From NCBI RefSeq assembly GCF_013122565.1, contig NZ_CP053258.1: 64,000 nt of DNA; one strand, written 5' to 3'. Below are positions 30,401-31,693 of this stretch, piece after piece. Source of the stretch: Escherichia coli. Lineage in GTDB: Bacteria; Pseudomonadota; Gammaproteobacteria; Enterobacterales; Enterobacteriaceae. The position numbers were made by a program. Within the stretch, counting starts at the first letter, position 1. Each line of letters starts with the position of its first letter.

Positions 30401-31693
30401 CGCAGATTGCATCGGATGCGCAAGGAAATAATTGCGCAGGCCTTTGTAAATGGCTTCTGCCAGCTGTTGTTGGTAATCGTCGCTCGCCAGCAAACGTTCT
30501 TCGCTGTTGTTGCTGATAAAACCGGTTTCGACCAGTACTGACGGGATATCCGGCGAACGCAGAACGCCGAGACTCGCGTGTTCTGGCCGACGTTTATGTA
30601 TTTCGCCAATGCGTTGCAACTGACTGATCATACTGGTCGCTACATCATACCCTACCCGCTGGGAATGACCGAACTGTAAATCCAGCACCGCCTGGCTTAA
30701 ATAGGGGTCAGACTGACTGTTCGCCAGCACATCGCCCGCTCCGCCCAGTAGCTCCGACTGTTTCTCGTGCTGCTCCAGCCAGCTGGCCATTTCGCTGTTG
30801 GCGCGACGGTTAGAGAGCACCCATACGGAAGCGCCGGTCGCACTGCGGTTCGGTGCGGCATCAGCGTGAATCGACACGAGGAAATTGGCGTTTTGCTTAC
30901 GTGCCACATCGCTGCGCCCCATCACCGATATAAAGTAATCCCCGTCACGGGTTAAAACGCCCTTAAACATCGGATCGTCATTGAGCAAAGTACGCAATTT
31001 ACGCGCGATGGCGATGGTGACATTTTTCTCCCGCGTACCACCGGGGCCGATAGCGCCAGGGTCCTGACCGCCGTGTCCGGCATCAATAGCGATGATAATT
31101 TTATCGCCAGTGTTAGCCGTCGCGCGCGCAGCCGGTCGCGTTACCGTATTACTGCTGATAACACCCGTAGTGCGGTTACTTTCCGTTTTAAACGGATTGC
31201 GCGCTGGTTCACTGACGCGCGGTGCGACAACCGCAGGCGTTTCAACGCGTTTCGCAACCACGGGCGGCGGAGGAGGCGGTGGCGGCGCATCGGCGTTAAT
31301 CGTAAAGACGACAGTGTAATTACTGCCATTCTGCCGCTTCACCGCTTCGGTTTTACCATTTTCGGTAAGATCGACCACCAGCCGTAGCGTTTGTGCATCT
31401 TGAGGCGTTCCGGAGCGAATCGCCTTCACCAGATTATTGCCGCTGAACAACAACGGCAGTCCCTGAATCACGCCCGTTTGTTTGATATCGAGCGCCACGG
31501 TGCGTTTGCTTTGATGGCTAAACGCATAATCAGGATCGCCAATAAAACTCAACGTTATCCGCGCCTGTTGGTTGCCGTTAGAAACCTGAATATCAGAGAG
31601 CGTCGCGGCACTCACCTGCGCGCACAGCAGCAGCAACGTCGCTACCAACCAATTTCTGATGCGATACATCATCCCGCCACCTTTCAAAGGTTA

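Follow-up and report, generated by a model that had tools for sequence, protein, structure and literature searches.

The eight-proline run of Escherichia coli AmiB, an EF-P-dependent ribosome stall site in a variable interdomain linker

Polyproline stall sites in E. coli and the amiB locus

The polyproline motif of CadC, like the proline run of the amidase AmiB, needs elongation factor P (EF-P) in its beta-lysylated form to be translated, and in CadC this dependence on EF-P reportedly sets the copy number of the regulator, a regulatory consequence said to have been demonstrated by Ude et al. in 2013. Here the two systems part, since CadC shows a regulatory consequence, whereas a drop in AmiB output would not by itself be expected to produce a phenotype. 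A structural likeness is offered by the linkers of TonB and MutL, which, like that of AmiB, are low-complexity, proline-rich spacers of variable length between folded domains; the AmiB run, unlike theirs, has no interruption, and for that reason it stalls ribosomes with unusual strength. Of the EF-P-dependent XPPX stall motifs documented in Escherichia coli, that of amiB is the longest, and among the genes of the species the longest series of proline codons has been ascribed to amiB (Martens et al. 2015, PMC4402525). The locus considered here is this same gene, with the same codons at residues 130-137, and nothing essential differs. What the present analysis adds is a correction concerning the modification enzyme EpmC, a caution arising from amidase redundancy and a population picture of the alleles of the run.

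The window, by which we mean the whole stretch of 64 kb (64,000 nucleotides of the E. coli contig NZ_CP053258.1), carries eight consecutive proline codons at 31262-31285 on the minus strand (CCG CCA CCG CCT CCT CCG CCG CCC), corresponding to AmiB residues 130-137. An earlier note made from this DNA had reported eight in-frame proline codons of amiB at this position without giving a strand, and translation of the minus strand returns the peptide that it quoted. The sole long ORF at the run extends over 30335-31687 (minus), with the annotated ATG start at 31672; the amiB coding sequence occupies 30335-31672 (minus) and specifies 445 amino acids plus a stop, assigned to the N-acetylmuramoyl-L-alanine amidase AmiB by its match to the NCBIfam equivalog NF007751 and by annotation in E. 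coli genomes. The NF007751 match reaches 976.1 bits, well above the cut-off (532), and covers residues 1-445, that is, the full length of the protein, and annotated amiB is matched by the window DNA in 5,425 of the 5,426 complete E. coli genomes, the best DNA identity among them being 98.4%. Across 28 kb the window is 98.0-99.0% identical to K-12, and the codons of the run are the same as codons 130-137 of amiB in K-12 MG1655; the five residues that separate this AmiB from that of K-12, including V129A just before the run, all lie outside it. A plus-strand ORF at 31073-31387, considered as a possible gene opposite the run, was rejected as an antisense reading without support.

A whole E. coli proteome with 4.4% proline would be expected to hold about 2e-5 runs of eight prolines, and the run is therefore not a matter of chance. 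Across the six frames of the window, no second run of four or more prolines occurs in an ORF of at least 100 amino acids. With more than the minimum of two consecutive in-frame proline codons in a translated gene that defines the class, the run belongs to the EF-P-dependent polyproline stall sites. Rfam returned no match at or near the run. A G-quadruplex was considered for the opposite, plus strand, which is rich in G, but the G runs there are mostly only two long. A slippage-prone repeat or contingency locus was rejected, as the run mixes its codons and a weak period-9 match with a score of 36 was all that Tandem Repeats Finder gave. Rare variants in run length are compatible with occasional insertions or deletions.

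The run lies between two folded domains. The septal-targeting AMIN domain covers residues 27-112 (31337-31594, minus; Pfam PF11741, E = 3.7e-4, 21.0 bits with the cut-off at 20.5), and the catalytic domain, Amidase_3, covers residues 194-413 (30434-31093, minus; Pfam PF01520, E = 2.8e-48, 164.7 bits), giving the layout of an N-terminal AMIN and a C-terminal Amidase_3 domain. The gap between the two Pfam domains, residues 113-193 (31094-31336, minus), is the interdomain linker that holds the run, which starts 18 residues past the end of the AMIN domain. This linker varies in sequence among AmiB relatives and is without a structure, the solved E. coli AmiB (PDB 8c0j; match E = 5e-143) spanning residues 190-422 only. 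The sequence of the run, its frame and its position relative to the domains are established here, as are the identities of the genes and the polymorphism of the run in the species.

Stalling at the run and its relief by EF-P

That ribosomes stall at the amiB run, and that the stall depends on EF-P, is already known and is taken here from the literature. Doerfel et al. reportedly translated AmiB in vitro, both with and without EF-P, in 2013. In living wild-type cells, ribosome footprints jump sharply at codons 130-138 of amiB (Martens et al. 2015, PMC4402525), a peak which may mean that the pause is not wholly erased by EF-P. Further evidence comes from Supplementary Data 3B of Sieber et al. 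2024 (PMC11611912), whose entries for E. coli BW25113 include asymmetry scores for the amiB run at its six PPP motifs and its one PPV motif. These scores are 1.0-1.24 in the wild type and 6.7-10.5 in Δefp; in the same supplement they are 1.0-2.9 in ΔefpL and 3.8-6.7 in Δefp cells that overexpress EfpL. The published EF-P literature describes EfpL, Uup and YebC as partial backups of EF-P. The rise from 1.0-1.24 to 6.7-10.5 on loss of efp (PMC11611912) bears out the prediction of the earlier note that translation of the run depends on EF-P, and ribosome profiling in an efp deletion, which it had proposed as a check, was thus already in print with the outcome that it foresaw. In the searchable literature we found no measurement of AmiB protein level in an efp mutant, and the supplements of Elgamal 2014 hold no amiB entry. 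The amiB run is a textbook-grade EF-P client that can be used as a natural reporter of strong stalling.

The same prediction had been carried a step further, to the claim that septal peptidoglycan cleavage would depend strongly on EF-P through AmiB. This extension does not hold, as cells that lack any single amidase separate normally, and separation is also normal in amiA+ ΔamiBC cells (bioRxiv 10.1101/2020.10.19.344754). An amiC PPA motif in the supplementary data of PMC11611912 has an asymmetry of 0.60 in the wild type and 0.52 in Δefp, with no dependence on EF-P. Since AmiA and AmiC cover for AmiB, lower AmiB output alone is not expected to have a phenotype, and with this redundancy a division phenotype is unlikely.

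Variation of the run and its possible roles

Alleles of the run were typed with exact 30-mers against the 5,426 complete E. coli genomes, an identical 28-base word being required for each match, and for this reason the allele classes are mutually exclusive. Eight prolines occur in three synonymous forms: that of the window and K-12 in 1,784 genomes, one with CCT as the last codon in 1,173 and one with CCT as the third codon in 1,319, together at least 4,276 of the 5,426 (78.8%). An interrupted form, PPSPPP followed by Met, is found in 700 genomes (12.9%) and a run of six prolines in 129 (2.4%), about 320 genomes being left untyped; an allele with seven prolines and another reading PPLPPPTP are single examples among the sampled sequences. 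A separate search with 120 nt placed 884 genomes in the bands of 80-95% identity. The sampled matches with no more than 92.4% identity are shorter by six to eight bases, which corresponds to the two codons missing from the PPSPPP and six-proline alleles, and all six genomes sampled from the high-identity band carry eight prolines. Two PPSPPP examples whose records were consulted are a urine isolate from the US and a Japanese isolate whose source is unrecorded. Taken together, the alleles form a natural series in which one can ask whether the length of the run matters.

Relatives differ in the run as well, and most of the distant ones lack it. Eight prolines are found in 104 of the best 120 clusters at 90% protein identity, the others having 3, 4, 6, 7 or 9; where a source is named, these 120 clusters are labelled mostly Citrobacter, with some Escherichia and Shigella, and most of those labelled Citrobacter keep the eight. 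Among representatives at 50% identity, an AMIN-linker-amidase layout could be delimited in 92. The linker has no Pro-Pro pair in 58 of these, and a run of at least four prolines in only four, all close enteric relatives. Judged from these comparisons, the run is a lineage-specific and somewhat plastic trait of a variable linker. Regulatory arrest or sensor peptides are conserved stall sequences tied to a regulated output; the amiB run does not appear to be of this kind, being polymorphic in E. coli, absent from most AmiB relatives and not known to govern a regulated output.

We consider it highly probable that the run is a proline spacer within a variable linker, that it provokes a strong stall which EF-P relieves, and that the dependence on EF-P is a tolerated side effect. 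On this account, the (CCN)8 stretch codes for a polyproline segment joining the AMIN domain to the catalytic domain, and ribosomes stall on it as successive Pro-Pro peptide bonds form slowly. EpmB and EpmA together beta-lysylate Lys34 of EF-P, and the active factor relieves the stall; throughput in the wild type is near normal. When EF-P is missing, ribosomes are some 7-10 times as dense upstream of the run as downstream. As the run is polymorphic and poorly conserved and the amidases are redundant, the dependence on EF-P is most likely a tolerated consequence of a proline-rich spacer and not an evolved regulatory switch. The structural role of the spacer, with no regulatory role beside it, is the part of this account that we infer. 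The presence of eight prolines in about 79% of E. coli genomes and in most clusters labelled Citrobacter, in mixed synonymous codons, would nonetheless agree with a degree of selection for the peptide, or even for the pause.

One rival to the tolerated spacer is a programmed pause, with the run kept so that the AMIN domain could fold, or the export machinery engage, before the catalytic domain is made. The position of the run is suited to this role: with the run beginning 18 residues beyond the AMIN domain, most of that domain would already be outside the exit tunnel when the ribosome arrives. Polyproline motifs are, moreover, enriched around domain boundaries, where a role in co-translational folding has been proposed (PMC5811046), and the footprint peak is seen even in the wild type (PMC4402525). 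A pause kept for such a purpose is hard to reconcile with the interrupted PPSPPP in about 13% of E. coli genomes and the six or seven prolines of others, and 58 of the 92 distant proteins with AMIN and amidase domains lack a Pro-Pro pair in the linker altogether. The wild-type asymmetry of about 1 among the entries of the supplement to PMC11611912 points in addition to little cost in throughput. We therefore regard a programmed pause as improbable and prefer the tolerated spacer.

It is still less probable, in our estimate, that the run senses EF-P through polarity within its operon, the stall uncoupling transcription from translation and lowering mutL-miaA-hfq expression when EF-P is limiting. 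The gene order fits such a device, as mutL starts 9 nt after amiB and is followed by miaA, hfq and hflXKC; but the run is polymorphic in E. coli, and the known promoters inside the amiB-mutL-miaA-hfq operon count against polarity. The effect itself has a precedent in a reporter, where PPPPPP placed upstream of a rut site led to Rho-dependent loss of downstream expression in Δefp (PMC5021804). The C/G ratio of the amiB mRNA also peaks at and just after the run, at 1.4-1.6 over nt 352-468 compared with about 0.5-1.3 elsewhere, although according to PMC5021804 this ratio alone is no predictor of a Rho site, and mutL and hfq are not mentioned there. A more specific form of the idea, to which we give slightly less credence again, makes the run a gauge of EF-P activity: limiting EF-P or limiting beta-lysylation would produce a stall at residues 130-137, then uncoupling, then lower mutL-miaA-hfq expression. 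If true, it would tie the status of a translation factor to mutation rate and to small-RNA regulation, and the link would be weaker in the roughly 13% of E. coli genomes that have the PPSPPP allele. The spacer whose EF-P dependence is tolerated remains our preferred reading of the run.

The EF-P genes and other features of the window

Several genes of the EF-P system lie in the window, at the coordinates that the earlier note had given for them, and each scores above its NCBIfam equivalog cut-off. The gene for EF-P itself, efp, whose product relieves stalls in trans, is at 49859-50425 (minus; TIGR00038, 253.6 bits), and Lys34 can be read from its translation at the loop's tip (KPGKGQA). Divergent from it is epmB at 50467-51495 (plus; TIGR03821, 533.6 bits), whose product, a lysine 2,3-aminomutase, supplies (R)-beta-lysine. 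At 43683-44660 (minus; NF006828, 604.4 bits) is epmA, the gene of the EF-P--(R)-beta-lysine ligase and a CDS of 978 nt in E. coli annotation, and both the ligase and the aminomutase are thus encoded in the window. The description of this set as the complete modification system needs correction. Hydroxylation by EpmC is the last step of the EF-P pathway (PMC12856214), and this third enzyme has no counterpart in the window, the best tblastn match of K-12 EpmC over the 64 kb having E = 0.25 over 21 amino acids. In K-12, epmC lies at 2,444,203-2,444,751, about 1.9 Mb from efp, and it may well sit elsewhere in the present genome.

The gene order is efp-ecnAB-sugE-blc-frdDCBA-epmA-yjeM-mscM-psd-rsgA-orn-three tRNA-Gly-queG-nnr-tsaE-amiB-mutL-miaA-hfq, which is the standard E. 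coli arrangement. A distance of 12-18 kb, filled with unrelated genes, parts amiB from efp, epmA and epmB, and their transcription units are separate. The earlier note had implied a significance in the presence of amiB in the same stretch as these genes, a significance that is lost once it is considered that EF-P acts in trans and that the genes stand so far apart in transcription units of their own. Polyproline motifs are present in about a third of E. coli proteins, as stated in a passage of PMC5811046, and EF-P clients are thus to be met in every window of this size. A functional cluster, in which amiB would be held near efp, epmA and epmB through co-inheritance or co-regulation of a client with its rescue system, is scarcely credible: the four genes do fall within 21 kb (30335-51495), and the post hoc chance of one given gene lying no more than 20 kb from efp in a 4.64-Mb genome is about 1%, but the coincidence was chosen after looking, from many possible ones, EF-P serves several hundred proteins in trans, the genes are on different strands in separate transcription units interspersed with unrelated genes, and in K-12 a distance of 1.9 Mb separates epmC from efp. 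That amiB lies near these genes is ordinary synteny and carries no mechanistic weight.

Immediately 3' of amiB, mutL occupies 28472-30325 (minus), its first base lying 9 nt past the amiB stop, as identified from the ORF, the gene order and alignment with K-12 MutL; miaA, hfq and hflXKC follow downstream. MutL has 617 amino acids here and 615 in K-12, owing to an insertion of two amino acids at about residue 417, in the proline- and lysine-rich interdomain linker of the protein, which makes this a second length-variable linker in the amiB operon.

Other differences from K-12 are scattered between amiB and efp. Of the three tRNA-Gly(GCC) genes, the first two, at 35190-35265 and 35423-35498 (minus), are separated by a spacer of about 157 nt (35266-35422), compared with 36 nt in K-12, which amounts to an insertion of about 120 nt. 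At 41811-41999, some 190 nt stand in place of the yjeN/yjeO segment of about 740 nt in K-12. Between frdD and blc, ampC is absent: the interval comprises 48295-48396, the K-12 flanks of ampC map to 48337 and 48342, and frdD and blc adjoin, separated by one terminator-like hairpin (ccggcctgccgttggcaggcc followed by a T run). Of the complete E. coli genomes, 5,426 in all, just 29 have the two genes close together; the eight of these that were listed are laboratory-developed strains, in which the flanks are still separated by about 135 bases more than here. The frdD-blc junction had no exact match in the species-representative genomes scanned, and it would be unusual for a natural lineage resembling E. 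coli to lack ampC. Finally, a guanidine-II (mini-ykkC) riboswitch, a known element, is located upstream of sugE/gdx at 49262-49308 (minus), where Rfam scores it at 50.4 bits against a gathering threshold of 32.
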